From: Ignavibacteriota bacterium
GTDB lineage: Bacteria; Bacteroidota; Ignavibacteria; UBA10030; SZUA-254
Direction: 5' to 3'
DNA length: 64,000 nt
Assembly (NCBI GenBank): GCA_963727845.1
Contig: CAVSHI010000006.1
Coordinates: forward strand, 3,935 to 67,934
Position 1 is the first letter of the stretch. Each line of letters begins with the position of its first letter. Shown here one piece after another: positions 11,587-49,150 of this stretch. Under the pieces are notes generated by a model. The model saw nothing but the letters and a program-made list of their open reading frames with translations. It did no database searches and was not told the origin of the DNA. The position numbers were made by a program, and so were the translations under genes.

Positions 11587-11649
11587 CAGGATGACAACTC
11601 CCTTAATAACTCCACGGAACTCCACTAATAATATAAGGAAACATCTCCC

Positions 11650-25897: not shown

Positions 25898-26302
25898 AGC
25901 TGAATACCTTGTTTGTGTAAGTTTGAGTGGGATAATGACAAGTTTGGGTATTGTACGAAAATGAATTCTTGTTTGCAAAAGACTGATCACCGGCAAGCCG
26001 GGTTCGAGGACAAAGCATAAGGCTTGGGCATCAGCTTTAGCATGTTGGCTCGTGCGAAAAGTCCGCGAAATGTGTCCTCCGTGACCATAATTCTGCGAAC
26101 CCTGATTCTGCCGCCGATGCGATTTGACATTAGATCAAAAATCCTTATCTTATCAAAATTCGTCACAGGCGGCCGACATGCCTTGATTCCATTGTTGTCG
26201 GGCCACAGGTCTCCAAAAAAACAACTGCAGAGTTATCTTTGAAAAATGCATGATTCTTGTTAATGTCTCCCAGTTTTTTCAGAGATCGAAGAGCGTCAAC
26301 GT

Positions 26303-29146
26303 ATGAAACAAACCCGCAACGTTGATTCCTCTTGTTGTGCTGTTTTCCTCCGGAGGATTTCCCTCGGTATATTTATCCTTCTGGCCGGATATGTCTCTTT
26401 TGTGTTCGCAGGCAACACCGGCAAGATTGCCGGCAAAGTGACAGACGCGAAGACGAAAGAGGCGCTGGTTGGAGTGAATGTGATTGTTCAAGGAACGACA
26501 CTGGGCGCCGTGACGAATCTTGACGGTGATTACACAATTCTCAATATTCCTCCCGGCGCGTATACGTTAAAGGCGTCGATCCTGGGATATGACCTCGTGA
26601 CGGTCAATGAGGTCCGGATTTCCATCGACCTGACTACTCGTCAGGACTTTGCGCTGACTGAAACGGTTATGGAACAAAAGGAAGTTGTGATAACAGCACA
26701 GCATCCTCTTGTTCAGAAAGACCTTACTGCGACCACCGCGGTCATCGGGAAGGAGGAGATTGCGGCGCTCCCTGTGACAGAAGTGTCTCAGCTGTTGAAT
26801 CTCAAGGCGGGGTACGTCTCGGGTAGCCTCCGTGGAGGACGTACGGGTGAAGTCGCCTACTGGATCGATGGGGTACCGGTAACGAACGCCTACGACGGAA
26901 GCCAGGTGGTTGAAGTAAACAAGAATATGGTTCAGGAAATGCAGGTCGTTTCCGGCGCGTTCAATGCCGAGTACGGTCAGGCGATGTCGGGTATCGTCAA
27001 CATAGCGACGAAAGAGGGCGAGAGTAAATTTCACGGAGGACTGAGCGGGTATGGCGGGCAATATGCCACGTCATCCGATGCCAATTATGATCAGGAGGGT
27101 CACGAGATTTCAGAGCTCTTCCCGGGGCTCAACCGTTTTCAGCCTACCGCGATCCATGACATCGAGGGCAACCTCAGCGGTCCACTGATTGGAGATGCAT
27201 TGACGTTCTTCGCAAACGCCCGCTATATTTATTTCGGCGGTGATTTTTACGGAATCCGCCGTTTCAATCCTCAAAACGTCGCTTACTTCGACAGCAGCAA
27301 TAATTATCACCTCTATAGAGATCCATCGGGCAAAGGAGACAGCTCATTTGTCCCGATGAACTGGAGCGAACGGTCGTACGCACAGGGCAAGTTGACCTGG
27401 CATATCAATCCTACGCTGAAGCTCACCGGCAATTTCATCTACGACGACGACGTGGCGAAGGCCTACGACCGGACCTATTTTCTCGACCCGGACGGAAAGG
27501 GCAATAACTACAATGTAAGCAATACGTTTATCTTCCAGCTCACGGACATGCTCAGTCCAAGCACGTTTTGCACGCTCGGTGGGTCGTACTTCGACAAGGA
27601 CTTCCAGTACTACCTCTATCAGGATCCGCACGACCCGCGGTATGTGAATCCCGGCGTGGCTATTTCCACGGAGCCGTACAGCTTCCTGACGGGCGGCACG
27701 GATCTCGGGAGGTCTCACCAGGTGACGATCACGAAACTTTTGAAGTTCGACCTCTCGAGCCAGGTCAATCAGAACAATCTCATAAAAGGCGGAGTGGAGT
27801 TTCGCCTGCATCATATCTATGATGAGAATATGACTCTCATCCCGGTGCAATCCGAGGTGGCCTTCAACCGGGTGACGAGCAACCCGTACATCCAGACGGA
27901 AATTCCGGATCTCGGGACGGTAAATCATGATATGTACAATCACAGTCCCGTGGAACTCTCCGGATACATTCAGGACAAGCTTGAGTTCAGTAGTTTCATT
28001 CTGAACATTGGTATCCGGTATGATTATTTTGATCCCAATGCCCTGGTACTCAACGATGCCCATCCGGATCCGAACGACCCTCTTCACCATATGTATACGG
28101 TCGATGACCCGGACATCTATTCCCCTATAACTCCCCAGCACCTGGCGGACAATCTAAGCATGAGGGAGACGTATTGGTATAAGAAAGCCTCGGTCAAGAC
28201 TCAGTTGAGTCCGAGGATAGGCGCATCGTTTCCGATCACGTCCACGGGTGTCGTACACTTTTCGTATGGTCATTTCTTCCAGATCCCCAACTTCCAACGG
28301 CTATATGAAAACCCGCAGTTCGTTCTGGGTCAGGGTACCGGAAACCAGGGCTTGTTTGGGAATGCCGACCTGGCAGCCGAACAAACGACCAACGGTGAGC
28401 TTGGCATACAGGAGCAGGTGGCGGAGGGCCTCTCGATGGACCTGACTGCCTATATTCGCGACATCCGGAATCTTACGAGCTCCAACAGCCAAACGGTCAT
28501 CTACGGTGGCTCCGCGATGTATACGCAGTATCAGAACAGTGATTTCGGGTATGTCAAGGGAGTTGTCCTGACGATGAAGAAAAGGTTCAGCGAAAAATTA
28601 TCGGCCACTTTGGATTACACATACCAGATAGCACGGGGCACGGCCTCCGACCCGACGCAGGCTCGCACGGCCCTTATTGGCGGTGCGCTGCCGGAGGTCC
28701 AGATTGCACCGTTGAACTGGGACCAGCGGCACACCGCGAATGCAACATTGTCCTACGATTCGCATCCGTGGGGGTTCGGTCTTATCGGGCAATACGGCAG
28801 CGGTACTCCATACACGCCGCAAACCATCGCCAGCGACATCAGTACGATCCTGACAAACAGCGAATCGAAGCCGACGTTCTTCGACCTGGACGCACAGGCG
28901 TATTATGAATTCCAGACGCACCCCGTAAAGGTTGTCCTTTTCGCGCGCGTCATCAACCTCCTCGACATACGCAATGAAACCGGCGTGTTCCCCCTGACGG
29001 GAAGGGCGGATTTCACTCCCGAGGAGCAATTAGCGTACTCGACCAATCCCGCCCAGGATGTGAATACTGTCGATCAATACTATCGGTATCCCGACCATTT
29101 TTCCGAGCCAAGACGTATTGAAGTCGGTTTGAATTTTGATTTCTAA
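26303..29146 (+). CDS. TonB-dependent outer-membrane receptor with an N-terminal carboxypeptidase-regulatory-like domain
   Basis: The CarbopepD_reg-like segment is GKIAGKVTDAKTKEALVGVNVIVQGTTLGAVTNLDGDYTI. It is followed by a plug region and a long beta-barrel. TATCTTTG at 26234-26241 is a possible -7 box. Confidence 0.75.
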   Translation: MKQTRNVDSSCCAVFLRRISLGIFILLAGYVSFVFAGNTGKIAGKVTDAKTKEALVGVNVIVQGTTLGAVTNLDGDYTILNIPPGAYTLKASILGYDLVTVNEVRISIDLTTRQDFALTETVMEQKEVVITAQHPLVQKDLTATTAVIGKEEIAALPVTEVSQLLNLKAGYVSGSLRGGRTGEVAYWIDGVPVTNAYDGSQVVEVNKNMVQEMQVVSGAFNAEYGQAMSGIVNIATKEGESKFHGGLSGYGGQYATSSDANYDQEGHEISELFPGLNRFQPTAIHDIEGNLSGPLIGDALTFFANARYIYFGGDFYGIRRFNPQNVAYFDSSNNYHLYRDPSGKGDSSFVPMNWSERSYAQGKLTWHINPTLKLTGNFIYDDDVAKAYDRTYFLDPDGKGNNYNVSNTFIFQLTDMLSPSTFCTLGGSYFDKDFQYYLYQDPHDPRYVNPGVAISTEPYSFLTGGTDLGRSHQVTITKLLKFDLSSQVNQNNLIKGGVEFRLHHIYDENMTLIPVQSEVAFNRVTSNPYIQTEIPDLGTVNHDMYNHSPVELSGYIQDKLEFSSFILNIGIRYDYFDPNALVLNDAHPDPNDPLHHMYTVDDPDIYSPITPQHLADNLSMRETYWYKKASVKTQLSPRIGASFPITSTGVVHFSYGHFFQIPNFQRLYENPQFVLGQGTGNQGLFGNADLAAEQTTNGELGIQEQVAEGLSMDLTAYIRDIRNLTSSNSQTVIYGGSAMYTQYQNSDFGYVKGVVLTMKKRFSEKLSATLDYTYQIARGTASDPTQARTALIGGALPEVQIAPLNWDQRHTANATLSYDSHPWGFGLIGQYGSGTPYTPQTIASDISTILTNSESKPTFFDLDAQAYYEFQTHPVKVVLFARVINLLDIRNETGVFPLTGRADFTPEEQLAYSTNPAQDVNTVDQYYRYPDHFSEPRRIEVGLNFDF

Positions 29147-29152
29147 ATAGAA

Positions 29153-32100
29153 ATGATCAACAGCAAAATACAAATAGTTGCAGCCGCACTTGCCATAGCG
29201 CTCCTGTCGACGCCGGCGTGGACTCAGCAGGGCCAGAGTGGCGCCTCCTATCGAAAAATCAATATTCATAATGCCAACCAGGTCCGAACCGTTTTCGGAA
29301 ACTGGGGTGTTATTGGTCAGCCCTGTAGCGGTGGACCGCGCGGCGCCTGGAGATATGATAATGACGGTTATCTCGGTGATGTGAGTCCGCTTGTAGGCGC
29401 CGAAATCACTTCACAGGGAACGACATTCCATTGTGTTGAGGGCTCTCCTGTCGACCGGCCCACGACGGCGACGGATACGGATCCGCGCACCGGTAAGTAC
29501 TGGACGTTCGAGCCGGTGAATGGTTACAATAATCCGAACGGACAGGTCCTTGCAATGAGCACCGACCCGACCTCCTGGCCGCCCTCTTGGCCCGATAAGG
29601 CCGCCGATCCCCTCGATCCAGGATGGCGAGGAGAGTGGAACGGCTACTTCGGAAAGAACGTCATGAACGCCGACCAGGAAAGCTATTTCGTGATGGACGA
29701 TAACAACAATGACCGTTTCAATTATAGCGTGAACAACTCGTTTAATGTCGCCTTTAAACCGGATTCAACTGACTCTACCAGGAATGGACTGGGGCTGGTC
29801 ATGAGCGTTCGCGGGCTCCAATGGGCGCAGTTCCTTGCAAAGGATAATATTTTCTGGCTGTACGAGATCGACAACACTGGAACGACAAATTACACGAAGG
29901 TCGTTTTCGGGCTGCTTGTGGGTACGTATGTCGGCGTCACGGGGTGCAACGACGCGCCGATGGAGTACGATAACGATTGGTCATTTTATGATGTTCAAAC
30001 CAACCTGACGTACACCGGGAATTATCCGCCCACGCAGATGAAAAATCCCCTCTGGATCGGCAACGTTGGGTTGGTCGGATATGCCTTTCTCGAGAGCCCC
30101 GGGAATCCCTACGACGGCATCGATAACGATGGAGATGCCGACTCAAGTATCACGGGCAAGGCAGCTCCACAATTTCAGGAAAGCGATTTCAGCGACTCAA
30201 CGTTGGTCGTACCGGGCACAAAGCTCATCCTCATCGATACGAACTATGTCCGGAGCATCTATACGGTGCCGAACGTGGATTCGGTTCTCGTCCACACGCG
30301 CGGATTCTCCATGATGCTTTACCCCCATGCCATTCCTTCTCAGTACATCAAACCGGAGGGGAACGTCCTGTACGACGCGGCCCACAATCCATACGTCAAT
30401 CCTAATGCGTATGATGGAGTCGACAACAATTTCAACGGACTCATCGATGAGAATTACTACCTGCATTATCATCAGATCAAGAAAGATCCCAAAACAGGTC
30501 ACGTCCTCATCGATATTCTGCGACCCCTTCGGCACATCAATTACCTTACGGGTGCCGGGAGCGATCCCTATAGTATGATCGACGAACGGCGGGATGACCT
30601 GATCGACAACAACCTCAACTGGAACATTAAGTTCGACGACGTCGGGATCGATGGTGTACCGAATACCGGGGACTACGGGGAAGGGGATGGTCTGCCCACG
30701 TCGGGATATGCACGGCCGCTGTTAAATGAACCGGGTGAGCCGCATGTCGACAAGACGGATGTGGATGAATCGGACCAGATCGGTCTGACGAGTTTCTATT
30801 ACTTTACTCCTGCCAACAATCTTTCCCTTGCCGACAAGGAAGGTCTGTGGAAAGATGTGGCTCCCGGTTATTTCGACGTTCCCACATCGATCGTGAACAA
30901 TAGGCCGCAGGGGGGCGAGGACGGAGACTTCATGTATTCTTCCGGCTATTTCCCGCTCCTGGCCGGCAAGACGGAGCGCTTTTCCCTCGCGCTTGTCTAT
31001 GGAGGACTCACCGATGACATCGATGCAAACCTTGCAGATCTGCTGAAGCACAAAATAACCGTCCAGAACATTTATAATGCAAACTATCAATTTCCGAAAC
31101 CCCCGGACAAGCCCACTGTGACGGCGGTCGCCGGTGACGGACAGGTAACGCTTTATTGGGACAGGAAAGCCGAGCAGACAATCGATGCCGTGCTTCATGT
31201 CAAAACGTTTGAAGGATACAAGATCTATCGCTCGACGGAATCGAACTTCGCCGACATCTTTACGATCACCGATGCGAGCGGGGATCCGGTGGGCTACAAG
31301 CCTCTGGCACAATTCGACCTGAAGGATGGGATCACCGGTTACTTCATCGCTCCGCCGGACCTCTTCCAGGATAACGCCGGGTATACGTACTATCTGGGGA
31401 ACGATACGGGCATTGTCCATACGTATGTCGACAAAACTGTTGAAAACGGTCTAAGATATTTCTACGCTGTGGTTGCATACTCCCGCGGCGACAACACGCT
31501 CGGAATTTTTCCGGCCGAGAATGACAAGTTCGTGAGCATAAACTCTTCCGGAGTGATCACTCATGGCATTAATGTGGCGGTGGTGACTCCCTCGGCCCCT
31601 GTCGCAGGGTATGTGCCCCCGACAACCGCCGTTCCGGTTACACATATAGCCCGCTACGGCACCGGCGAAGTCTATTACAACGTTGTGAATCCATCCACAA
31701 TCATGGGTCATACGTACAGAGTCGAATTTTTCGACACTGAAATTGACAGTGTTGATGCGGCCGGAAACCCGGTCGTGAACACGACCGATTCTACCACATG
31801 GACGCGCCTCACGACGCTGTATTCTGTGAGGGACCTTGCGACAATTTCGGAGAATTTCGTAAGCCTGGACACGGTACTGGTCTATCTCAGCAACCAGAAT
31901 CTGGTCGCCTCGACGGTTGTCGTGAGTGACAGCAGGGGCAACGTCGTGTCCCCTTCGAAATATCACCTCGATGTAACGCGGGGAACGATAAAATCTGCAA
32001 CTCCCGGGAGTCTCCCTGTGGGGAACTACCATGTGTCGTACCAGCATTATCCGGTCTACCGAAGTGCGAACATTCTCGGTTCACCTTTTGTGAACGAAGC

Positions 32101-32974
32101 CAAGGATGCGGATATTTTTGACGGTCTCAAGTTAGGCTTCAACAACGCCTGGAACATCACTGAGATTGATAGTTTGTCGCGTTGGATAGGGCTCAATCCG
32201 TATGTGTTCAGTTTCACTCCGTTGAATATTTCGAACCCCTCGATGCTTGGATACCGGCGGCCGGCGGACTACGAATTTCGGTTCTCCGACCATATTGTAG
32301 ACACATCTGTGGCGAGTACGGCCCTTTTTCTTGGCGCCACTCCGACCAATTTCAGGGTTTATAACTTGACGGAAAGCACCTATGTGAAGTTCTATTTATC
32401 CCAAACTCGTTTCTTCAATAACCAGCTATCCCCCGGGGATGATGTTGTTTTCCTCGAAAAGAGTCCAAGGGGTGACTACGTTCCGACATGGGATGTCCCT
32501 TTTGACAGAAAAGCCAGTGACAAGAACGACTCCGTATACAATTTAACGGTGGGCGATACGCTTCGAATCAGAACAACCAAGCCGTTCCATTACGGCGACA
32601 TCATGGAGTTTACACCGATTTTGCAACGGGTCAGTCAGGATACGGCCAAGAATACTCTTTCCCGCATCAAAGTCGTTCCCAACCCGTACGTGACTGCTTC
32701 CTCCCATGAACTGCCGTTGCCGCCGGGAATTACGAGCGGCCGCGGGGATCGGAGGGTCGAATTTATCCACGTCCCGGCCAGCGCAAAAATACAGATATTT
32801 ACATCCCGGGGAATCCTCGTGCGTACGCTGTACCAGGATGGGAATATTGAAGACGGAACGGTCGTATGGAATCTCAAGACGGATGAGAACCTGGATATCG
32901 CGTTCGGTGTATATTTTTATGTTGTGCAATCCAGCGTGGGATCCAAGACCGGGAAAATCGCGATCATCAAATGA
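29153..32974 (+). CDS. large secreted surface protein (1273 aa) with Ca-binding DxDxDG-type repeats, an Fn3-like domain and a T9SS C-terminal sorting domain
   Basis: It has a signal peptide. The repeats are GIDNDGDAD, DGVDNNFNGLIDEN and DVGIDGVPNTGDYGEGDG. The Fn3-like segment is KPTVTAVAGDGQVTLYWD...GYKIYRST. The C-terminal 100 aa match the T9SS sorting-domain pattern (VVPNPYV...GVYFYVVQ...KIAIIK). Confidence 0.65.
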   Translation: MINSKIQIVAAALAIALLSTPAWTQQGQSGASYRKINIHNANQVRTVFGNWGVIGQPCSGGPRGAWRYDNDGYLGDVSPLVGAEITSQGTTFHCVEGSPVDRPTTATDTDPRTGKYWTFEPVNGYNNPNGQVLAMSTDPTSWPPSWPDKAADPLDPGWRGEWNGYFGKNVMNADQESYFVMDDNNNDRFNYSVNNSFNVAFKPDSTDSTRNGLGLVMSVRGLQWAQFLAKDNIFWLYEIDNTGTTNYTKVVFGLLVGTYVGVTGCNDAPMEYDNDWSFYDVQTNLTYTGNYPPTQMKNPLWIGNVGLVGYAFLESPGNPYDGIDNDGDADSSITGKAAPQFQESDFSDSTLVVPGTKLILIDTNYVRSIYTVPNVDSVLVHTRGFSMMLYPHAIPSQYIKPEGNVLYDAAHNPYVNPNAYDGVDNNFNGLIDENYYLHYHQIKKDPKTGHVLIDILRPLRHINYLTGAGSDPYSMIDERRDDLIDNNLNWNIKFDDVGIDGVPNTGDYGEGDGLPTSGYARPLLNEPGEPHVDKTDVDESDQIGLTSFYYFTPANNLSLADKEGLWKDVAPGYFDVPTSIVNNRPQGGEDGDFMYSSGYFPLLAGKTERFSLALVYGGLTDDIDANLADLLKHKITVQNIYNANYQFPKPPDKPTVTAVAGDGQVTLYWDRKAEQTIDAVLHVKTFEGYKIYRSTESNFADIFTITDASGDPVGYKPLAQFDLKDGITGYFIAPPDLFQDNAGYTYYLGNDTGIVHTYVDKTVENGLRYFYAVVAYSRGDNTLGIFPAENDKFVSINSSGVITHGINVAVVTPSAPVAGYVPPTTAVPVTHIARYGTGEVYYNVVNPSTIMGHTYRVEFFDTEIDSVDAAGNPVVNTTDSTTWTRLTTLYSVRDLATISENFVSLDTVLVYLSNQNLVASTVVVSDSRGNVVSPSKYHLDVTRGTIKSATPGSLPVGNYHVSYQHYPVYRSANILGSPFVNEAKDADIFDGLKLGFNNAWNITEIDSLSRWIGLNPYVFSFTPLNISNPSMLGYRRPADYEFRFSDHIVDTSVASTALFLGATPTNFRVYNLTESTYVKFYLSQTRFFNNQLSPGDDVVFLEKSPRGDYVPTWDVPFDRKASDKNDSVYNLTVGDTLRIRTTKPFHYGDIMEFTPILQRVSQDTAKNTLSRIKVVPNPYVTASSHELPLPPGITSGRGDRRVEFIHVPASAKIQIFTSRGILVRTLYQDGNIEDGTVVWNLKTDENLDIAFGVYFYVVQSSVGSKTGKIAIIK

Positions 32975-32981
32975 TGCCGCT

Positions 32982-34016
32982 ATGAATTCGTTCAGACGAG
33001 AAATTGTGCGCATTGCGTTGTTTGCCATGACCCTCTGGATCATTCTGGCAGGAGCGGCGTCCGGCCAATCAAAAGTTGGTACGACGGCGGCACAATTTCT
33101 GGGGATTGCCGTCGGCCCGCGCGCGATAGCCATGGGCGGCGCGAGCGTGGCTTCGGCGGAGGACGTGTCTTCGCTGTACTGGAATCCGGGAGCATTCGCG
33201 CAGGCGGGGAGATCCGAGGTGATGTTCACGAACTGTGAATGGTTGGCAGGCACAAAATTCCGATGGCTGGGATTGATGTACAACCTTGACGGGACCAACG
33301 CAGTGGGGGTGAGTCTCACGCAGCTCGATTACGGCGACGATGAGGTAACGACGACGACGAGCCCGGAAGGAACAGGACTGCGCTGGTCTGCAGAGGATGT
33401 CGCCATAGCCCTTTCCTACTCCCGCCGATTGACGGATATGTTCTCGCTGGGGGGCACAGTCAAGTATGTCGACCAGTCAATCTATAACGAATCGGCGAGC
33501 AGCTTCACATTCGATTTGGGACTTCTGTACGTTACGGACTTCAACGGGTTGCGCCTGGGAATGTCGATGTCGAATTTTGGCGGCGATCTCACGTTGGACG
33601 GTCAGGATTTGTACCAGCCCGTGGACATTGACCCTAACGATCCCGGTGGGAATAAGACCCTCGTCGCCAAGCTGAAAACTGATGCGTTTCCACTGCCGCT
33701 TCTCTTCCGCGTCGGAGTTGCAATGGACGTTGTGAAAACCTCCGATGTAAGGATGACCTTGGCCGCCGACGCGGAACACCCGATTGATGATGTTGAATCG
33801 GTCAATCTGGGCGGCGAGATTGGATGGCATGACATGCTGTTCCTGCGTGGCGGGTATATGTCGCTTTTTGACGTGAATTCACAAGAAGGTCTTACGCTGG
33901 GAGCCGGTGTGAAGTATTCGATGGAGGGCGGCGGTTCGCTTGAAGTGAACTACGCATTCAACAAATTCGGGGTTTTCGATAATCTCAATACGATCGGGCT
34001 TGCAATTGGTTTTTGA
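32982..34016 (+). CDS. PorV/PorQ-family outer-membrane beta-barrel protein (T9SS-associated, FadL-like)
   Basis: It has a signal peptide. The family signature is TTAAQFLGIAVGPRAIAMGGASVASAEDVSSLYWNPGAF. ATG 32982 lies 8 nt past the upstream stop. The upstream 92 codons of ORF 32706-34016 overlap the previous gene and are not coding. Confidence 0.65.
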   Translation: MNSFRREIVRIALFAMTLWIILAGAASGQSKVGTTAAQFLGIAVGPRAIAMGGASVASAEDVSSLYWNPGAFAQAGRSEVMFTNCEWLAGTKFRWLGLMYNLDGTNAVGVSLTQLDYGDDEVTTTTSPEGTGLRWSAEDVAIALSYSRRLTDMFSLGGTVKYVDQSIYNESASSFTFDLGLLYVTDFNGLRLGMSMSNFGGDLTLDGQDLYQPVDIDPNDPGGNKTLVAKLKTDAFPLPLLFRVGVAMDVVKTSDVRMTLAADAEHPIDDVESVNLGGEIGWHDMLFLRGGYMSLFDVNSQEGLTLGAGVKYSMEGGGSLEVNYAFNKFGVFDNLNTIGLAIGF

Positions 34017-34138
34017 TTCGGGGAATTGATATATTGATAGATTACGGGTGCCGCAGAGAGATGAGGTGCTTTCAAGCTTGGATTCGCTGTTTTCCTAATT
34101 TCTTAACTCACAAAACACAACTCATTCAAGGAGATATC

Positions 34139-36166
34139 ATGAAAAGATTGCTTCCATTGCTGCTGGTGGTCTTGGCCGCAGGCCTGGTACCGCTATCAGT
34201 TGCGTTTGCACAAACGACGAGCGTGACATTCATGCTGAATACGTCGACAGTGCCGGACACGTTGACTCCGATCTCGAGTATCGTCGTTATTGGTGCCGGG
34301 GATTCCCTCACCAACTGGTCGACGGGTAGACCATTGACCAATCTCGGCGGCGACTATTGGTCGGGAACGGTTAAAATCCCAACAGGGGATACTCTTCAAT
34401 ACAAGTTCCGGGTCGGCAGCGGCGGCTGGGAAGAAAATATCAACGGACCTTTTAGCGATCATACGACACGCAACATCATTGTCGGGGCAACCGATACTGT
34501 TTTGCCTGTGGCGTACTGGAACAATGGGCATTTTGCCAGTGGTAAGAACCCTGGGGAGTACGATGCACCGTGGCCTGTTGCCGCTGATACCTTCTTCAAC
34601 GTGTATTTTCGTGTGGATATGCAGGGTGTTTCTGACGCAGGCTCGTTTGGTTTCGACAAGACCAAGGATACCGTGGCGGTCCGCGGTGGTGGGAATTCCG
34701 ACCTCACGTGGGGTGCCAACCTCTGGTTGAAGCAAGAATCTTCACCCACCAGCAACGCTGGCGCGTTCGCTGTCGATCCTACGAATTTTTGGTCGGGTCG
34801 CGCGAGGATATCCAAGAACCAGGCACATCCCGGAGATACGATCCAATACAAATTTCTCATCGGCTACACTTGGGGCCACGATGAACAATTAGCATCAAAC
34901 CGCTTCTTCGTGGTTCCCACGAACTACAAGGACACAACTCTGTACTACGCTTACTATAACAACCAGAGACCTATCGTTCGTTCAAATGCGGATACGGTGG
35001 TTGTTACATACCTTGTCGACATGGCAAGTGCCATCCAGAACCGAGGCTTTGCGATCGGGGATACCCTTCAGATAACATCGGGCTACTTCGTCACTGCTCA
35101 GGCCCAGACTACAAGCACTCTGAATCGTATTGGCCTTTCAACTAAGTACACGGCAAAGGACACTGTTATCACTTCGCTGTCGAAAACGTTTGACTACCAG
35201 TTCTACATAGTGAAGAATGGCACGTCGTACCGAGAGGTCTATTATAATTTCAATTATGCGGGCGGCACTGCCAGTGAAGCGGAACGTCGCCAGGTCGTCA
35301 TTTCATCGAAGACCCAGACAATTGCTGACACCGTGAGTAGCATCTCAAGCTCGCGTCGTCAACCCTCGTTCCAGAACCAAACACTTGTCGCCCAAAATCT
35401 GACGGTGAAGTTTACTGTCGACATCCGACCTGCGATTTACGCAGTGAAAGCAGGCAAGACATTGGTCGACGGGCAGGGGCCATGGACAGTTGTATATGCT
35501 GACAGCATCTTTAAGTGGGGTGTCGCAATCAACGGACCGGCCACGGATACCACCAATGGGTGGGCATCATGGGGCGCTTCCCTCATTAACGACACTACGC
35601 ATCGGATGTACGATGACGGCACACACGGCGATGCAGTGGCTCATGATTCGATCTTCACGCGCATTTACACATACAGAGCCGGTAAGGATATCGTTGGTCA
35701 GGAATTCAAATTTGGTATCGGCGGTGGCGACAACGAAGGCGGGTACGGGAATAACCACATCCAAAATCTCGATGACAGCCAGCCCACCTCCACACTTGCA
35801 TCGCAGTTCGGCAGCATCGACCCGATTTTCTATTCGGCCTGGAATTACGACTGCGGTTGTCCGGCAAGTCCCAATGCTGTGGATGTACCGAAAATCAAAC
35901 CGGTGACATTTGCCTTGCACCAGAATTATCCGAATCCATTCAACCCGTCGACGAAGATTGAATACACTATCCCGAACGATGCGGTTGTGATGCTGAAGGT
36001 GTACAATATTCTGGGTCAGGAAATCGCAACGGTTGTGAATGAGAAACAATTCGCCGGCGCCCACTCGGCCGTCTTTGACGCGTCGAAGCTGAACAGCGGC
36101 GTCTACTTCTACAGGATCACTGCTGGTACATACTCAAGTACCAAGAAGATGTTGCTCATTAAGTAA
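34139..36166 (+). CDS. secreted protein with several CBM-like beta-sandwich repeats and a T9SS C-terminal sorting domain; candidate surface alpha-glucan-binding protein
   Basis: ATG 34139 starts a signal peptide (MKRLLPLLLVVLAAGLVPLSVAFAQ). Three or four CBM-like modules with W/Y-rich sites repeat along it (GGDYWSGTVKIPTGDTLQYKF; TIQYKFLIGYTW; DYQFYIVKNGTSY). The T9SS C-terminal domain is LHQNYPNPFNPSTKIEY...GVYFYRI...KKMLLIK. Confidence 0.65.
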   Translation: MKRLLPLLLVVLAAGLVPLSVAFAQTTSVTFMLNTSTVPDTLTPISSIVVIGAGDSLTNWSTGRPLTNLGGDYWSGTVKIPTGDTLQYKFRVGSGGWEENINGPFSDHTTRNIIVGATDTVLPVAYWNNGHFASGKNPGEYDAPWPVAADTFFNVYFRVDMQGVSDAGSFGFDKTKDTVAVRGGGNSDLTWGANLWLKQESSPTSNAGAFAVDPTNFWSGRARISKNQAHPGDTIQYKFLIGYTWGHDEQLASNRFFVVPTNYKDTTLYYAYYNNQRPIVRSNADTVVVTYLVDMASAIQNRGFAIGDTLQITSGYFVTAQAQTTSTLNRIGLSTKYTAKDTVITSLSKTFDYQFYIVKNGTSYREVYYNFNYAGGTASEAERRQVVISSKTQTIADTVSSISSSRRQPSFQNQTLVAQNLTVKFTVDIRPAIYAVKAGKTLVDGQGPWTVVYADSIFKWGVAINGPATDTTNGWASWGASLINDTTHRMYDDGTHGDAVAHDSIFTRIYTYRAGKDIVGQEFKFGIGGGDNEGGYGNNHIQNLDDSQPTSTLASQFGSIDPIFYSAWNYDCGCPASPNAVDVPKIKPVTFALHQNYPNPFNPSTKIEYTIPNDAVVMLKVYNILGQEIATVVNEKQFAGAHSAVFDASKLNSGVYFYRITAGTYSSTKKMLLIK

Positions 36167-36184
36167 CATGTAGTTTACCAATGA

Positions 36185-36224
36185 AAGCAAGGCGGGAATC
36201 GTTTCTCGCCTTGCTTTTTTATTC
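36185..36224 (+). terminator. rho-independent terminator (10-bp stem AAGCAAGGCG/CGCCTTGCTT followed by TTTTTT)
   Basis: A perfect inverted repeat and a T-run lie 19 nt after the stop at 36166. Confidence 0.7.
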
Positions 36225-36273
36225 TCCGAGGCCTAACCGGCCATGAGAGAATTTGCCGGGATTCTTTGAGTAC

Positions 36274-38089
36274 ATGATGGTACTGGTTCTCATTATCTGG
36301 TCCATGTTCGCATCCTTGCCCTTCCCGGGGCGGGAGAAATCCGATGATGTTCTCGCGCGGGCGGGCAATGTCTTTATCGGCAAGCAGGAATTTCTCGAGC
36401 GATATGAATTGTTGCCGGGACTCTACCGCCATCGCAAGCCTCAACTGGAGGGTTCGAAACTTGAATTGTTGTATTCCATGATCGCCGAGAAATTGCTCAG
36501 CCGGGAGGCGCAGGCTCGGGCATTGGATCGCGATTCGATGTACATATTTGCAATGGATGCTGTGCGGAAAGCTCTCGGCAGAGACGAACTCTACCGGGAA
36601 GAAATCGCGCAAAAAGTCCACGTTTCCGAACGTGAAATCTCACGCGGCATCGCCAAAGCTCAGCGGCAACTACTCGTCGCCTACTTGTACTCGGAACGCA
36701 GAAGCGATGCCGATTTCCTGCGCATGCAAATGCGCAACGGGGATGACTTTGACAGGTCGGTGGTGGATTCGTCTGCCGGGGTTACGCGGGACACGGCAAC
36801 CGTCATCTGGGGTGATGCAGAGCCCGCCGTAGAAGACGCGGCTTATGGACTGCGCCGGGGCGGGGTATCGCCGGTTATCCAGGCGGGGGACGGATACTAT
36901 ATCCTGAAAGTTGAAGGTGCGAAGCGCAGTGATTATTTTTGCTCACTGCCACCCGACGCGCTGCACGATCGTGTTGAGTCGATTCTTAGGACGAGGAAGG
37001 AAAAAGCCCGGTTGAATGAATTTCTCGAAAAGGCTCTCAAGAATAAGACCGGCTATGCTTTGCCTCGAACGTTTCTCGTCCTCGGGAGGGCGATTGATGA
37101 AGTTTACCGGGGAAGGAAAACGCAGGCGAAGCTTTCAATGGACCGGTCAATGTATGAAGAAATCAGAAACAGATGCGCCGCTTCACTTCTCGACACTCTT
37201 GCGATAGCGGGCCGAATTCCCTGGACCGTCAATGATGTTCTTGCCCGCCTCTACGAATCCGGATTTGAAATTGACAGCGGGGATATGAAGCATCTCCCGG
37301 CACGCTTAAATACTCAACTGAAGGTTTGGGTTCAGCAAGAAGTGCTGGCCCAGGAAGCCCTGCGGCGGTCACTGGATAAGAAACCCGGGTTGCGGAAACA
37401 ACTTGAGATGTGGTCGCATTATTATCTTGCAGGACTCATGAAAGATTACCTCAATGAGCATGTCGCAGTTTCCGACTCGGAAGCATGGTCGTTTCTTCAA
37501 TCAAAGGAGAAGAAAGACATAATCCCGCAAGTGAGGATTCGGGAACTTCGGACCGCCACAGCGGATGAAATGAAAGAGGCTGTGTCCGACCTTCAGAATG
37601 GGATGTCGTTTGAGAATGCGGTGGAGAAGTATTCAAACGACCTCAAAGCGAAATTGTCCAAGGGCGTTTCGGACTTCTTCCCGGTCACGGAACATCCCCC
37701 GATAGGTGAGATTGCTTCGCAAATGGAAATCGGCCAGCGGTATGGTCCTGATTATCGTCAAAGGGGGGATCGATTTCTTCGAATTACTGGACAGGAAGAT
37801 ACCGGCGATCATTGACACGCTGCCTCTGGCGAAGAGGAAACAGGCCGCCGGCAATGAATTGCTGGCAATGAAACGGAAGAGAACTCTCACATTGTTTCTT
37901 GCTCAGGTTGCAAAGGAGCGGGGATACGAAATCGACCAGGACAAATTGCAGGCAACAGAGGTCACCACGATACCAATGATGACGTACAGGATCCTCGGGT
38001 TCGGCGGTCGAATGTGGGCAGTTCCGTTTGTCGATAAACAACTGGACTGGATAAATGTTGAACCTCCGTCCACACCGATCATACCATAA
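36274..38089 (+). CDS. SurA-like periplasmic chaperone / PpiC-type peptidyl-prolyl isomerase; apparent +1 frameshift near 37706-37745 (ORFs 36253-37815 and 37706-38089)
   Basis: The N-terminus is hydrophobic. The PpiC-like domain is split across frames: frame A ends ...MSFENAVEKYSNDLKAKLSKGVSDFFPVTEHPPIGEIASQMEIGQ, and frame B continues SGMVLIIVKGGIDFFELL, which is GYHIIKV-like. Confidence 0.5.
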
Positions 38090-38101
38090 GGAACCGGTCC
38101 C

Positions 38102-39580
38102 ATGCGCAGAATCGTGAGCAAAACGCTGCTTGTGCTGAGTGTATGTTGGTGGACACATGCTTTCGGGCAATCCGCCGATAGCACAGTACACGTTCCTGCC
38201 TGGGTGAAGGATGCTGTTTTCTATCAGATATTCCCCGAACGATTTGCGAATGGGGATACAACCAACGACCCGCCGGACGTCCAGCCATGGGGTGGAGCTC
38301 CAACGTCAACAAATTATTTCGGCGGCGACCTCAAGGGAATTATCGACCATCTTGACTATCTCCGGCGGCTCGGTGTCAATGCGCTCTATCTGAACCCTAT
38401 CTTTGAATCGCCCTCGAATCATAAGTACCATACCTCCGACTACATGAAGGTCGATCACAATTTTGGCGATGAAAAGACGTTCAAGAAGCTCCTTGACGAG
38501 TGTCATGCGCGCGGGATGCATGTCGTCATCGATGCGGTGTTCAATCATACCGGCGTCCATTTCTGGGCGTTTGAAGATGTCAAGAAGAACGAGGCAAAAT
38601 CGAAGTATCTTCATTGGTATAATATCCATGGCTTTCCGGTCGGGCCGCCGGATAAACCGAATTATGAGGCCTGGTGGGGAATGGGAGATCTGCCAAAGCT
38701 CATGACCGACTCGCCGGAGGTCCGCCAATATCTGTTTGATGCAACATCGCATTGGATGAAACTCGGCCTCGATGGCTGGCGGCTGGACGTGCCCAACGAG
38801 ATGTCGCATAATTTCTGGATTGAATGGAGAAAACTGGTCAAGGCCGAAAATCCCGATGCCTATATTGTTGGAGAGATTTGGGATGACGCCACGCCGTGGC
38901 TCAAGGGCGACCAGTTTGATGCCGTCATGAACTACCGGTTCCGGGGAGCCTGTGTGGGTTTCATCGCACTTGAGAATTTGAACGCGTTCCAGTTCGATTC
39001 CATTCTGCAGGTGCAGCGTTCTCAGTATCCGCCGGAAGTGAACTTCGTTCTTCAGAACCTCATCGGCAGTCATGACACCGAACGGTTCCTCACCCTCTGC
39101 AAGGGGGATATCAATAAGCTCAAGCTCGCCGTGCTGATGCAGATGACATACGTCGGCGCTCCGATGGTGTACTATGGCGACGAAATTGGGATGGTGGGCG
39201 GGAAAGACCCCGATTGCCGCCATACAATGATCTGGGATTCAACGAAGTGGAAGGGAAACCTGCTGGCATGGTATCGAACCATGTGCAGGTTGCGGGATGA
39301 ACATCCCGTCTTCAGACGGGGAACGTTCAAAACTATTCTGGTCGATACGACAAATAAACTCTTTGGCTTTGTCCGCGAGGACGGGAGTTCGAAGGCAATA
39401 GTGATTCTCAATAACAGCATTACTGCACATTCGGTCACCGTTCCGCTGGAACCGGGAAGGAAATGGTATGATGCTATGGATCAAAAGAAAATGACGTTAG
39501 GCAGGGAAACGTCGGGTGCCATGAGTGTCCCGGCCCGTTCCGGGCGTGTGATTATTTCCGACGAAAGCGGGGAAAAATGA
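38102..39580 (+). CDS. GH13 alpha-amylase-family enzyme (neopullulanase/cyclomaltodextrinase-like), secreted
   Basis: It has a signal peptide. GH13 motifs are present: VFYQIFPERFANGD; GGDLKGIIDHLDYLRRLGVNALYLNPIF; region I DAVFNHTG; region II GWRLDVPNE; region III EIWDD. Confidence 0.85.
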   Translation: MRRIVSKTLLVLSVCWWTHAFGQSADSTVHVPAWVKDAVFYQIFPERFANGDTTNDPPDVQPWGGAPTSTNYFGGDLKGIIDHLDYLRRLGVNALYLNPIFESPSNHKYHTSDYMKVDHNFGDEKTFKKLLDECHARGMHVVIDAVFNHTGVHFWAFEDVKKNEAKSKYLHWYNIHGFPVGPPDKPNYEAWWGMGDLPKLMTDSPEVRQYLFDATSHWMKLGLDGWRLDVPNEMSHNFWIEWRKLVKAENPDAYIVGEIWDDATPWLKGDQFDAVMNYRFRGACVGFIALENLNAFQFDSILQVQRSQYPPEVNFVLQNLIGSHDTERFLTLCKGDINKLKLAVLMQMTYVGAPMVYYGDEIGMVGGKDPDCRHTMIWDSTKWKGNLLAWYRTMCRLRDEHPVFRRGTFKTILVDTTNKLFGFVREDGSSKAIVILNNSITAHSVTVPLEPGRKWYDAMDQKKMTLGRETSGAMSVPARSGRVIISDESGEK

Positions 39581-42500
39581 AAAACTTTGCTCTGCTTATG
39601 ATGTGCCTGGGACTCCAGGTTGCTTATTCCCAGGACAGCGTTGACGTGTATTTCATGTACAAATCTCCATCAAATCCGAGTATCGTGTATCTCCCAGGCG
39701 AATTTAATAACTGGGCGGACAATAACAGCGGGGTAATATATCCCAGTTCACAATGGGACATGACAAAAGATAGTGTTTCGGGGATGTGGTACAAATGGTT
39801 GCGGTTGAAGGTTGGAGGTGGTCCCACGAGTCAGGTTGCCGGCGCCTATCAGTACAAGTTCAATGAGAATGGTTGCTCTACATGCTGGCTGAATGACCCG
39901 CTGAATCAGCATGTCAACAACTCGGACAACAGTAATTCACTTATCTATGTCAAGGATCCTACGATCTTTCACTTCCTTCCGAACCAGCGCCAGCCCATTG
40001 TGAACACCGCAATGCCGGAGATATCGGCGTACATTTTCCCAAAGGTCGGGACATCGGTAGACACGGCATCCATCTCGCTGACGATTGACACGTCCACCTT
40101 CACGAATATGGGATCGGACTATAACTTCAGCACACATCGACTCATTTTCACACTTTCTTCCGCGCTTACGAACGGAAGTCATACGGCGATCCTGTATGCC
40201 CGGTCGCTGGCAGGAGGGGCGAATGCCGATACAGTCGTGTTTTACGTTGAAAGTGGATTTGTGCAGCTGCTCAATCAATCTCCACTCTCGACATGGGAAT
40301 CCAAATGGACGCTTTATGGAAGCGTGAACGACAGTACCATCACATCGGTGAACATAATTCACAACAGCACCGATACGTTCCTGGTCCCGGTAGCCGGAAA
40401 ATCGTTCACATATTCTGCATCCCTTCTGGAGGGTGCGAACGTTTTCTCCGCCGTAACGGACTCAGCTGGATCGCCAAGGGTTTCGGCGCCCGTAACGATT
40501 ATCCGTGAGGTGAATCACTCACCCTGGGCCACCATATCGCTTTCGGATTCAAGCGGCGGAATCCAGTTGAGTGCTCTCTCGAGCAGTGACCCGGATTCAG
40601 GTCAGTCGACGTTGCTCACGTACTCCTGGTCGGTCGACGCTGCAAACCCCTCTGTCATTGCCGGCGTCTCCGGTTCGACCGCGGGTCAGATTTTAGTCTC
40701 CAAACCCTCAATTCCCGGAGAATACTACTTTGGTCTCATAGCCACCGACCCTAACGGCAATAAGGATACGACGAGGAACTACTTCACTGTCAACGGCGAC
40801 GGAACTGTGTCCTATCCAACGCTGGCCAGTAATCCTTCCTGGTTGAATCGGGGCCGGATGTACCTGCTCTTTTTTAAATCGGCCACGGCAGCGGGAACGA
40901 TCAATGCCGCGTTGCCATTGCTCGACTATATCAAGGCCATGGGATACAATATCATCTGGATCATGCCTGTCATGAAGAATGCCTCTCCCATGGATAACCT
41001 GTACGGGACGGGATACAACATCGTTGATTTTTACAACGTCGCTCCGGAATACGGTTCAAATGTAGATTTCCAGAACTTTGTAGCAAGAGCGCACCAGCTG
41101 GGCATTCGAGTGATTCAGGATATCACTCCGAATCATACCAGCTCGATGCATCCGTTCGCCGGCGACATCCAGAACTTTCGGAAGAGCTCGAGGTACTGGA
41201 ATTTCTATGAGCATCAGCTCATCACGAATCCGAACTACCACCCCGACCTTACGGAGGGGTACACGGATGACAGCCTGTTCGTAGTATACTCTGCCTTCGG
41301 CGACATGCTGTTAAACTACAACTGGTCCGACCTCGATGCCCGCAAGTACATGATCGGTGTGTACAAGTGGTGGGTGAAAGAAATGGGCGTCGACGGCTTT
41401 CGCTTCGACGTTTATTGGGGACCGCACAGCCGGGCAGACGGCGGCAATGGCGGTGAGGATGAAATGGGACAGCCGGTGCGCGCGGCACTCAAGCACATCA
41501 AGCCCGACATATTTATCCTCGGAGAAACGGACGGTACCGGCATTGGCACGGAGGTCAATTATGGCGACCGGAACGGCGGTATCGACGCGGGCTATGACTG
41601 GAATCTGTTCCATAATGGCATTCAAAATTTCTATTCATCCGGTCCTCAGATCAGTGCGCTGAATTTCTACCTTCTCAACGGCGGCTCGACAACCATGGGT
41701 TTTGAGCCGGGGCCGAATGCATACTTCATGCGATTCCTGGAAGACCAGGATGAAGACCGTATCGCTTACGTCTACGGCTCACTTGCGAAGACGATGCCGG
41801 TGTCGACCATTGTGCTGACCTCTGTGGGGATTCCCCTGGTCTATTCGGGGCAGGAGCTCGGTTGGGGGCTCGGAATACCGGGCGCGAAAGAGGCGCGCAG
41901 CCGCAGCGTGATCGACTGGAACTACAGCGGGAAATCGACTCTCCAGCCGCATTATCAGAAGCTCGCCCAGATACGATCCCTGTTTTCTCCGCTCTGGACG
42001 CAACAGCAAATCAGCGTGAGTACGGGCAACGGTTTTGTCATGGGCTATACACGGCCCTTGAATGACCTGAACTGCATCGTACTTGCGAATTTTGATGCCA
42101 GTTCGCACATGTCGAGCGTTGCTCTCACGGTGGGTGGAACACCGAACGTGTTCTTCTCTCATGGCGTGGTGAACGGCCGCACGTACTACGCCAGCGACCT
42201 TTACAATGACACTGTGTACGATGTCACGTTCAACGCGGGGTCGGCGACGCTTTCCGTGAACCTTCAGGCATACGGCTCGGCCGTCATCGTACTTGACGAA
42301 ACGACGCACACACTGCTTCTTCCACCAATCACAGATGTGAAAACATCGGGGGTCGGCGTTCCCCGGCAATTTGCACTGTACCAGAATTATCCCAATCCGT
42401 TCAATCCGACGACAACAGTGTCATTTGCGATTAGTCATTCGTCATTTGTGACACTCAAGGTGTATGATGTATTGGGGCGGGAAGTCACCGCACTTGTGAA

Positions 42501-42627: not shown

Positions 42628-42644
42628 TCGTCCGACGCTTTCAC

Positions 42645-43898: not shown

Positions 43899-44118
43899 TT
43901 AGGTCGTTGAATAGTTGGGTAGTTAAGTAGTTGAGATAAAGAGATGCCAGAACATTTTTTAATTTTTCATTTTTAATTTTGAATTGTTAGCAAAAAGCTC
44001 AAGGCCAGAACCAGGAACTAATGACCTATGAATAATGAGCAACGAGTAAAGCCAAATGACTAATGACCGATAACGAAGAACCAAGAACCAATAACCAAGA
44101 ACGCTTCTTCACAATGAC
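43899..44118. repeat. AT-rich low-complexity spacer between malE and malF, with a 15-bp tandem direct repeat (CATTTTTTAATTTTT / CATTTTTAATTTTGA) and reiterated TAGTT and AACCAAGAAC motifs
   Basis: The repeats are visible in the sequence. The composition contrasts with the flanking GC-rich DNA. Confidence 0.5.
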
Positions 44119-45012: not shown

Positions 45013-45061
45013 TGATCTCGGATTGTGGAATGAGGATTGTGGATTACAAGAACTGACGAAG

Positions 45062-48450: not shown

Positions 48451-48570
48451 AAATTTCCTCTGTTAGTTAGTACTTTGTTTTCAAAAGATAGTGGATACTC
48501 GATGCAAAAGTGTGTGAACACGGTACCGAATAGAGGTTACCAACTGTAATTTAGCTTAAAATCGAGACTT

Positions 48571-49101: not shown

Positions 49102-49112
49102 ATCATTCCTTT

Positions 49113-49150
49113 ATCAGCGTGATCAGCGGTCATCAGCGGTCTCAGCGGTC
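49113..49150. repeat. four tandem copies of a 10-bp repeat (ATCAGCGGTC) in the divergent promoter region between the DUF2127-like and aldo/keto-reductase genes
   Basis: The copies read atcagcgtg, atcagcggtc, atcagcggtc, tcagcggtc. Confidence 0.7.

Follow-up and report, generated by a model that had tools for sequence, protein, structure and literature searches.

A large putative surface protein of an unannotated superfamily is encoded between a TonB-dependent receptor and a PorV/PorQ-family barrel and may take the place of SusD in uptake loci

Introduction

What protein serves a TonB-dependent receptor (TBDR) when the gene directly after it does not encode SusD? The question is raised by a 64,000-nucleotide (nt) stretch of Ignavibacteriota contig CAVSHI010000006.1, hereafter called the window, to whose positions all coordinates refer. 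In an α-glucan locus of this window, a TBDR gene is followed on the same strand by an open reading frame (ORF) for a 1273-amino-acid (aa) protein. We use BIG as a working label for this protein and for the unannotated superfamily to which it belongs. The original prediction for the gene, made from its letters, described a protein that occupies the position of SusD without sharing its tetratricopeptide repeat (TPR) fold, carries Ca2+-binding Asp-rich repeats and an Fn3-like domain, and is sorted as a type IX secretion system (T9SS) substrate.

The answer matters beyond this locus. The prediction of polysaccharide utilization loci (PULs), and much of the picture of glycan foraging in the Fibrobacterota–Chlorobiota–Bacteroidota (FCB) group, centers on the susC/susD tandem. 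The explanation that these phyla simply lack SusD can be rejected, since Melioribacter roseus possesses a susCDE operon for starch of the canonical type (PMC3534657) and susCD tandems in Ignavibacteriae are among the predictions of PULDB (PMC5753385). Because SusD is present in the phylum, the gene trio described below represents an alternative architecture and not a phylum-wide replacement. The susCD genes are reported to be rare in the carbohydrate-active enzyme (CAZyme) clusters of Ignavibacteriales (PMC10576277), and the uptake machinery of those clusters consequently looks undefined. Searches of the open-access full-text literature turned up no earlier account of the trio or the BIG family.

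Results

BIG defines a large superfamily without annotation

The BIG ORF is uninterrupted from ATG to TGA and begins 6 nt after the stop codon of the TBDR gene, in agreement with the predicted gene order. A protein identical to BIG exists in a public collection, and more than 2000 homologs of conserved length match it over their full length at 55–85% identity, which establishes that BIG is a real gene. The best 120 of these >2000 matches are 1242–1317 aa long, cover 96–100% of the query and are 54–100% identical to it; all are unnamed or called "hypothetical," and none carries a Pfam domain. An exhaustive search of 50%-identity representatives gave 1575 clusters when the limit was E ≤ 1e-3 and 413 when it was E ≤ 1e-30, most of them 950–1600 aa long, and a profile built from 42 divergent members retrieved >4362 clusters at 90% identity. 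The latter include metagenome-assembled genomes (MAGs) labeled candidate division KSB1, WOR-3, Calditrichaeota, "FCB group," and Neomarinimicrobiota. Among them, the sole informative name is "T9SS type A sorting domain-containing protein."

Established families explain little of this protein. The whole BIG sequence has no Pfam or NCBIfam match at E ≤ 0.01, and six overlapping pieces scanned at E ≤ 10 yield nothing but a marginal C-terminal match to CHU_C, a T9SS C-terminal domain (CTD) family. A profile search of the PDB with the BIG ortholog alignment returned no match at E ≤ 10. The same search with the divergent-paralog profile placed the CTDs of PorU and PorZ as the two best matches, and the rest was noise (for example, transthyretin-like proteins and an Fn3-like protein). 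A precomputed match of one paralog to PF27730 (UCP028589) was only "faint" and was disregarded.

Receptor, BIG, and barrel genes are strictly syntenic

When one genome per species was scanned, 231 genomes were found to encode a BIG relative. The best 80 loci come from Ignavibacteriota or "Bacteroidota" MAGs, from Neomarinimicrobiota/Fidelibacterota (Marinimicrobia), and from one Cloacimonetes genome. Among the matches with names, none could be recognized as a cultured isolate; L071, "Cloacimonetes bacterium TCS60," is not labeled as a MAG. Neighboring genes were detected by tblastn with the window's own neighbor proteins, and counts were limited to loci with enough flanking sequence. Directly upstream of BIG, a TBDR gene is present in 69 of 69 such loci; directly downstream, a PorV-like gene is present in 75 of 75. 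A homolog of the CBM20/T9SS protein that comes next in the window follows in all 50 loci that could be scored. The mean pairwise identity in orthologous loci is 0.55 for BIG, 0.53 for the TBDR, 0.52 for the barrel, and 0.41 for the CBM20 protein.

The downstream barrel gene was overlooked by the original prediction. Although its mechanical ORF spans 32706–34016, the likely start is the ATG at 32982, 7 nt past the BIG stop codon. The encoded protein scores 203 bits against NF033709 (cutoff 90) and matches PF19572 at E = 1e-11. It falls under the cutoffs of the equivalogs PorQ (the best, 101 versus 220 bits), PorV (79 versus 250 bits), and PorV2. Its sole PDB relative is the PorV chain of the SprA–PorV complex (6h3i_F, E = 1.1e-10). 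By these sequence comparisons, the barrel is best classed as a true PorV/PorQ family member that is an ortholog of none of PorV, PorQ, and PorV2. With a dedicated barrel gene adjacent to BIG, the predicted label "T9SS-sorted" becomes a specific candidate mechanism of anchoring, and the unit of interest becomes a module of three or four genes and not a pair.

The upstream receptor is not a typical SusC. It matches CarboxypepD_reg (PF13715, E = 2e-19) and Plug (31 bits, cutoff 23.9), whereas its score against TIGR04056 (SusC/RagA) is 71 bits with a cutoff of 368 and covers model positions 2–208 only. Its PDB matches are to the plugs of PqqU and YncD only; no SusC structure appears at E ≤ 1e-3.

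Divergent paralogs keep the module at 30–45% identity. We inspected the neighborhoods of nine divergent superfamily members, extra copies in their loci, and one further pair, for 13 paralogous genes in total. All 13 have a PorV-family gene downstream, which is the very next gene in 11, and a TBDR gene of the CarboxypepD_reg/Plug type is directly upstream of nine of the nine paralogs with an identifiable upstream gene. In one locus (L091:3470-3841), a small unrelated ORF with a 23S_rRNA_IVP Pfam match separates the BIG paralog from the PorV-like gene. The further pair, a 1240-aa protein and a PorV/PorQ-family barrel, is encoded just upstream of the orthologous locus in the same Ignavibacteriota chromosome (L001), giving two copies in that genome. 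Tandem triads were also observed (L083/L084 and L087/L088); the trios of L084 and of L087/L088 are complete, two in a row with a shared orientation. Such an arrangement would be expected if the module had duplicated and diverged as a unit, as susCD pairs do. In a WOR-3 locus (L093:7190-17703), a TBDR gene is followed by BIG paralogs of 1099 aa and 949 aa and then by one PorV-family barrel, and the two surface proteins may share this one anchor.

The genes around these triads differ and point to different substrates. An α-glucan context (GH13/GH57, CBM20-T9SS, and an ABC transporter) surrounds the WOR-3 triad L093, a xylan context (GH10-T9SS, GH67, GH43, and CBM9-T9SS) surrounds a KSB1 triad (L092), and a β-glucan context (GH94, CBM30-glycoamylase-T9SS, and GH2) surrounds a Calditrichaeota triad (L094). 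A GDSL esterase gene is found in another locus (L085), and no obvious CAZyme gene lies near the triads of L086 and L087. The trio is general and not starch-specific. In 46 orthologous loci of the compared set L001–L078, a LacI-family regulator gene stands directly upstream of that for the TBDR; the 64-kb window contains no such gene. No SusD was detected in the window locus or in the 17 homologous and paralogous loci listed with Pfam families. The predicted setting, a T9SS-sorted non-SusD protein in the SusD position beside a TBDR of a glucan locus, is thus strongly supported by context, and the pairing with a receptor extends to distant paralogs in starch, xylan, and β-glucan loci. No homolog without a TBDR was found in these comparisons, and the family searches linked BIG to no known family of adhesins or proteases.

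In four settings (L085, L086, L087/L088, and L092), a type-A-CTD protein with FG-GAP or UnbV_ASPIC repeats adjoins the trio in the position of the CBM20/T9SS protein. The recurrence of a type-A-CTD protein beside the trio suggests that the conserved unit may comprise four genes, for the transporter, BIG, the barrel, and a T9SS cargo protein.

The C-terminal half ends in a tail that resembles the CTDs of PorZ and PorU

An AlphaFold2 (AF2) model of aa 645–1273 has a pLDDT of 83 and a pTM of 0.78 and is a chain of β-sandwiches, including the C-terminal strands. Across both modeled halves of BIG, the predicted structures consist of β-sandwiches and one long helix. Foldseek matches of the C-terminal half are generic Ig/Fn3-type chains; PorZ (5m11) is ranked second with the highest listed probability, PorU is also present, and TM-scores are low. 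A β-sandwich at ∼aa 652–800 in this model may be the predicted Fn3-like domain, with FNIII chains among the weak Foldseek matches and a profile match to the "Fn3-like protein" 3mpc at E = 0.12. Pfam fn3 does not match BIG, either whole or in pieces at E ≤ 10. Residues W669, Y689, Y769, and Y771 of this domain are conserved across the superfamily. The adjoining region, aa 801–1169, is the least conserved part of the protein, with a mean pairwise identity of 0.40 among orthologs, and is gappy or absent in paralogs. In members of 1476–1592 aa (P0224, P0229, P0232, and L085:3022-7800), Reg_prop β-propellers replace this variable β-sandwich region; another member (P0238) has a BNR/PSII_BNR-like region near its N-terminus.

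The top matches of the C-terminal half also include an S-layer protein, adhesins, and pilins, all of them generic Ig-like chains. If BIG were a general surface-layer or adhesin protein, as its large size, Asp-rich sequence, and possibly Ca2+-dependent β structure might also suggest, then its adjacency to a receptor would have no functional meaning. We give this explanation very little credence because it is contradicted by synteny. Gene order is perfectly kept across six phylum-level groups and in the 30–45% identical paralogs, the intergenic gaps are 6–7 nt, and the loci are LacI-associated and CAZyme-rich.

A profile of the BIG tail (aa 1170–1273, 77 sequences) compared by hhalign with a profile of the type-A CTDs of the CBM20 proteins gave a probability of 89.7% (E = 1.9e-6) and an alignment through the last residue, whereas the Fn3-like domain and the domain preceding the CTD, used as controls, gave 0.4% and 1.6%. 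Against NCBIfam, the CTD portions of PorZ (E = 1.3e-4) and PorU (NF033707, E = 3.6e-3) both came ahead of TIGR04183. The T9SS assignment of the original prediction is supported by these values, yet the scores of BIG itself fall under the family cutoffs: TIGR04183 reaches 16.6 bits where 23 are required, and the CHU_C match of the tail has E = 0.016. PF18962, which was not reported for the BIG protein of the window, matches eight of 42 divergent paralogs (best E = 3.5e-10). When these 42 paralogs were scanned at E ≤ 1, no Pfam families gave recurrent signals other than those of CTDs (CHU_C in 13, Por_Secre_tail in eight, and FlgD_ig in eight). On the basis of these alignments, we regard the tail as homologous to T9SS CTDs in the broad sense of a C-terminal β-sandwich combined with a Sec signal peptide.

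Conservation of the tail is unusually high. The mean pairwise identity of orthologs is 0.67 in the BIG CTD, compared with 0.40 in the preceding 375 residues and 0.52 in the cleavable-type CTD of the CBM20 neighbor. The BIG CTD is as conserved as the N-terminal core and is the most conserved piece of the C-terminal half. A conserved insertion of ∼20 residues (...ELPLPPGITSGRGDR...; aa 1180–1200, positions 32690–32752) follows its VPNPY strand and is absent from the type-A CTDs of the neighboring proteins. This insertion, modeled with pLDDT <50, is a candidate barrel-recognition element.

In Porphyromonas gingivalis, PorU and PorZ are T9SS substrates with uncleaved CTDs, and the PorQ barrel holds PorZ on the surface (PMC10947112). 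A review has proposed that cognate PorV-like barrels shield CTDs from cleavage (PMC10202324). By analogy, the BIG CTD may be retained and may dock on the barrel encoded next to it.

The same resemblance permits a different explanation. BIG and the barrel could form a local T9SS attachment or organizing module, similar to PorZ/PorQ or PorU/PorV, that tethers type-A-CTD cargo such as the CBM20 protein and the secreted GH13 protein near the transporter and does not itself bind glycan. That the BIG CTD comes nearest to the CTDs of PorZ and PorU, and that both proteins are among the fold matches of the C-terminal half, would fit such a role, as would the Reg_prop β-propellers of some paralogs; PorZ contains β-propeller domains. 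In addition, a type-A-CTD gene is found within ∼3 kb of the triad in seven of 10 distinct triad-bearing loci with listed genes, and the high conservation of BIG suits a machine part. We nevertheless consider this explanation unlikely. The only Cys residues of BIG (aa 58, 94, and 265) are not invariant among 48 orthologs, hence there is no PorU-type Cys/His peptidase site, and no sequence similarity to PorU or PorZ extends beyond the CTD. At least one genome has two copies (L001) and other loci have tandem triads (L084 and L087/L088), each copy being tied to its own TBDR, an arrangement that general sorting would not require. Strict adjacency to a TBDR and one-to-one pairing would be left unexplained by a sorting role.

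Conserved Asp-rich loops and a putative supersandwich characterize the N-terminal half

The predicted absence of a SusD-like TPR fold agrees with three observations: no SusD or TPR model matches BIG pieces at E ≤ 10, the models are almost all β, and the signal peptide contains no lipobox Cys. When 48 orthologs are aligned, many of the D, N, G, and W positions within the N-terminal ∼650 residues prove invariant, and a large part of the final ∼100 residues is likewise invariant. As modeled by AF2, aa 25–670 are almost wholly β with a moderate pLDDT of 69, and the Asp-rich segment aa 477–551 is poorly modeled. By Foldseek, ∼300 residues of this half weakly resemble a β-supersandwich (best E = 1.6e-3, probability up to 1.0). 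The targets are N-domains of GH94 and GH149 phosphorylases, cyclic glucan synthase, PL26, GH116, and GH174, together with YidC P1. These ∼300 residues probably correspond to the module at aa 40–330, a placement derived from the strand pattern because the Foldseek table gives no coordinates. This N-terminal module is found in 92–100% of 88 paralogs.

The Asp-rich sequences noted in the original prediction are present, but they do not form DxDxDG repeats. Asp/Asn-rich loops occur at aa 320–331, 421–434, 477–488, 495–513, and 533–542; they are separate and not tandem, and the strict pattern D-x-[DN]-x-[DN]-G occurs once, at aa 424. The suggested likeness to thrombospondin and dockerin repeats is mere resemblance, given that thrombospondin type 3 and dockerin models match neither the BIG pieces (E ≤ 10) nor the 42 paralogs (E ≤ 1). 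EF-hand models in these paralogs are limited to EF-hand_5 and EF-hand_8, in one member each and with insignificant E values of 0.5–0.7.

Conservation of the loops is nonetheless a real hallmark of the superfamily. Five residues of loop 1 (D321, D324, N325, D326, and D328) show a conservation of at least 90% among 83 divergent members and do not vary in orthologs. The residues that reach at least 90% superfamily conservation in loops 2–4 are D477, E478, D485, W490, D495, D496, G498, D500, G501, E529, D536, E539, and D541. Such conservation across the superfamily favors a structural and probably metal-binding role over substrate-specific chemistry. The loops may bind Ca2+, and the pLDDT of <50 in loops 2–4 might be expected of metal-dependent loops.

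Conserved and variable blocks alternate along the protein. In comparisons with 83–88 divergent paralogs, ∼aa 50–330, 480–870, and 1050–1273 are conserved, whereas ∼335–470 and 880–1040 are variable or gappy. The first variable insert is covered by 49–79% of the 88 paralogs, is gappy in the superfamily alignment, and is confidently modeled as β strands (pLDDT 80–92). As read from the alignments, this alternation is consistent with a constant scaffold that carries variable inserts for specificity.

Could BIG be a new surface enzyme, either carbohydrate-active or a peptidase, that processes substrate right where the transporter opens to the outside? Its N-terminal module looks like the supersandwich found alongside the catalytic domains in GH94, GH149, GH116, PL26, and GH174, many Asp and Glu residues are invariant, and an S46 peptidase gene is the divergent neighbor of the locus in the window. 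However, the supersandwich of GH94-type enzymes is an accessory N-terminal domain and is not catalytic, and the models contain no (α/α)6 barrel, TIM barrel, or other catalytic fold. The orthologs have no HExxH motif, no invariant Cys, and one invariant His only. The same acidic residues are kept in starch, xylan, β-glucan, and CAZyme-less loci, which fits a structural or metal-binding role better than catalysis. Since, moreover, the S46 neighbor recurs in only one other locus (L029), we judge an enzymatic function quite improbable.

The operon and its surroundings

Promoter-like and terminator-like sites were sought at positions 25900–45800, the former as consensus matches alone. Two promoter-like sites match the consensus at 10 of 12 positions, and the one at 27200 is inside the TBDR gene, which leaves a single such site upstream of the operon. 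This site and a strong terminator-like hairpin bracket the TBDR, BIG, barrel, and CBM20 genes, which consequently look like one four-gene unit. The likely start of the CBM20 gene, as read from the sequence, is the ATG at 34139, whereas its mechanical ORF extends from 34013. The features of the locus are collected in Table 1. The downstream PPIase and GH13 genes recur in many orthologous loci. No further copies of BIG, the TBDR, or the barrel were found within the window.

Table 1. Features of the BIG locus in the window
Feature	Position	Strand	Basis
Promoter-like site TTGACA-16-TATCTT, 10 of 12, in the 306-nt intergenic region before the TBDR gene	26124..26151	+	Consensus match alone
TonB-dependent receptor, 947 aa (CarboxypepD_reg, Plug, barrel)	26303..29146	+	Pfam/NCBIfam
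BIG, putative 1273-aa secreted T9SS-type surface protein of an unannotated superfamily	29153..32974	+	ORF, homologs
Predicted Sec signal peptide, ∼aa 1–24, MINSKIQIVAAALAIALLSTPAWT	29153..29224	+	Read from sequence
N-terminal conserved β module, ∼aa 40–330	29270..30142	+	AF2 model of N-terminal half, strand pattern
Asp-rich loop 1, aa 320–331, DGIDNDGDADSS	30110..30145	+	Conservation
Variable insert 1, ∼aa 335–470, small β domain including subfamily-specific loop DGVDNNFNGLIDEN	30155..30562	+	Alignment, model
Asp-rich loops 2–4, aa 477–541	30581..30775	+	Conservation
Fn3-like β-sandwich, ∼aa 652–800	31106..31552	+	Model of C-terminal half, weak FNIII matches
β-Sandwich chain, aa 801–1169, containing variable insert 2 (∼aa 880–1040)	31553..32659	+	Model, alignment
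Divergent T9SS CTD, aa 1170–1273	32660..32971	+	hhalign, weak family matches
PorV/PorQ-family 14-strand-type outer-membrane barrel, 344 aa, proposed cognate anchor	32982..34016	+	NF033709, PF19572
Protein with CBM20 and type-A T9SS CTD, fourth gene of operon	34139..36166	+	CBM_20 E = 8e-7, Por_Secre_tail E = 6.5e-11, TIGR04183 49 bits
Intrinsic-terminator-like hairpin, 16-bp stem, T tract	36183..36218	+	Strongest by far in 25900–45800
Accessory α-glucan genes: SurA-like peptidyl-prolyl isomerase (PPIase), maltodextrinase-like GH13, GH13 with T9SS CTD, MalEFG-like ABC binding protein and two permeases	36253..45904	+	Pfam/NCBIfam

On the upstream side, the S46 (DPP7-like) peptidase gene (23798–25996, − strand) is divergently oriented and adjoins the intergenic region at 25997–26302, where orthologous loci carry the LacI-family regulator. 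A functional tie between this peptidase and the BIG locus was rejected because the neighbor occupies the same position in L029 only. Also just upstream of the locus are a 434-aa ORF with no Pfam or NCBIfam match (22199–23503, − strand) and a gene for a 964-aa TMEM260-like putative protein O-mannosyltransferase (18688–21582, + strand). Carbohydrate genes are abundant in the remainder of the window as well. Its beginning (36–13668) encodes a GH78 rhamnosidase, two GH123-like proteins, a DUF5107-TPR protein, and a GH27 α-galactosidase with NPCBM. Positions 47293–61442 encode PFK, GlgC, a GlgA-like starch synthase, a pullulanase-type GH13 enzyme, a GH77 enzyme, and a further GH13 enzyme.

Discussion

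We consider it probable, with some reserve, that BIG is a T9SS-exported surface partner of the upstream TBDR, held by its own PorV/PorQ-type barrel, and that it acts as a capture, lid, or scaffold component. In the mechanism we propose, Sec would export BIG by means of its N-terminal signal peptide, and the T9SS translocon would move it across the outer membrane by means of the C-terminal β-sandwich domain. The uncleaved CTD would then dock on the adjacently encoded barrel, as PorZ does on PorQ and PorU on PorV, thereby tethering a large, probably Ca2+-stabilized, all-β ectodomain over or beside the transporter. Parts conserved throughout the superfamily (the supersandwich-like module, the Asp-rich loops, and the Fn3-like domain) would contact conserved partners, whereas the two variable inserts would recognize substrate. 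For the locus studied here, the substrate would be α-glucan or maltooligosaccharides released by the T9SS-secreted CBM20 and GH13 proteins. Once the TBDR had brought the oligosaccharides into the periplasm, a GH13 enzyme and the MalEFG-type ABC importer would complete their processing there. BIG would thus stand functionally in the place of SusD or of a surface glycan-binding lipoprotein, with an unrelated fold and with a T9SS/barrel anchor instead of a lipid.

The case for a receptor partner gains from the β-supersandwich resemblance of the N-terminal half, a feature shared with many carbohydrate-active enzymes. Several considerations weigh against it. Family scans of BIG and the 42 paralogs detected no carbohydrate-binding module (CBM) or lectin family, and the CBM20 protein of the operon could do the capturing. 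BIG is far more conserved than expected of a SusD-like protein: its 55–60% identity across phyla is high for a binder like SusD or a surface glycan-binding protein and more typical of a machine component. The fold assignment of the N-terminal half depends on a model of moderate confidence and on weak matches. The CTD scores of the window protein are below curated cutoffs, and the case for CTD retention and docking is made entirely by analogy. Finally, the triads that have no CAZyme gene nearby indicate that the module is not restricted to glycans.

A broader proposal can be made tentatively, and we hold it to be slightly short of probable. The trio may form a hitherto unrecognized three-component outer-membrane uptake complex, made up of the transporter, a T9SS-delivered protein for capping or capture, and the anchor barrel, that is the standard PUL core of the non-Bacteroidia FCB lineages (Ignavibacteriota, Marinimicrobia/Fidelibacterota, Cloacimonetes, KSB1, WOR-3, and Calditrichaeota), where it would replace the lipoprotein-based SusCD and render import T9SS-dependent. 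If the trio is a functional equivalent of SusCD, then it offers a search marker for PUL-like loci in abundant, mostly uncultured phyla of soil, sediment, and marine habitats, and it defines a large superfamily (∼1575 clusters at 50% identity) that is currently without annotation. Functional equivalence would also extend the idea that a cognate PorV-like barrel retains a CTD from T9SS housekeeping and gliding adhesins to nutrient import, and would predict a new architecture for TonB-dependent transporter complexes. What appears to be new in this proposal is a TonB-dependent glycan-uptake locus whose T9SS-anchored partner comes from an entirely unannotated superfamily, with a CTD–barrel pair welded to a TonB-dependent transporter.

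Comparison with known systems

The BIG loci share much with SusC/SusD pairs and utilisomes. BIG is encoded right after a TBDR with a CarboxypepD_reg-type N-terminal domain, and the loci have an associated regulator, secreted and periplasmic CAZymes, an inner-membrane importer, and paralogous pairs for different glycans. Unlike SusD, BIG has neither a TPR/SusD fold nor a lipid anchor, and it exceeds SusD in size more than twofold. It also appears to be sorted by the T9SS, to judge from its CTD, and brings its own PorV/PorQ-type barrel. The receptor of the trio likewise differs from SusC in scoring under the SusC/RagA cutoff and in lacking a sequence match to a solved SusC structure. BIG loci lack the susC/susD tandem by which CAZy/PULDB recognizes a canonical PUL, whereas they do have co-localized TBDR, CAZyme, and regulator genes.

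Like PorZ–PorQ and PorU–PorV of P. gingivalis, BIG is a large β-rich putative T9SS substrate paired with a FadL-like barrel of the PorV/PorQ family. The homology to these proteins is confined to the CTD, however, and there is no C25 peptidase site. BIG paralogs are each linked to a TonB-dependent transporter in a nutrient locus and not to the T9SS core. A similar gene order is known for type-B CTD proteins such as SprB–SprF and PG1035–PorP, in which the gene for a big surface protein is followed by that of a dedicated outer-membrane barrel; the cognate PorP/SprF-like barrel is required for surface anchorage of these proteins (PMC9143113). In contrast, the barrel of the trio is of the PorV/PorQ family, the BIG CTD aligns with type-A CTDs and weakly with CHU_C, and the proposed process is transport, not gliding.

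A FadL-like 14-strand barrel can also serve as a platform for a large surface protein beside another barrel, as BamG does in the β-barrel assembly machinery (BAM) of Bacteroidota (PMC12578637), and the barrel of the L001 paralog has a weak match to BamG. BamG–BamH differs from the trio in that BamH is a lipoprotein, the complex assembles outer-membrane proteins, and neither a T9SS CTD nor a TonB-dependent transporter is involved. The closest known systems are therefore SusCD and the utilisome with respect to function and, with respect to anchoring, PorZ–PorQ, PorU–PorV, and the type-B CTD proteins with PorP.

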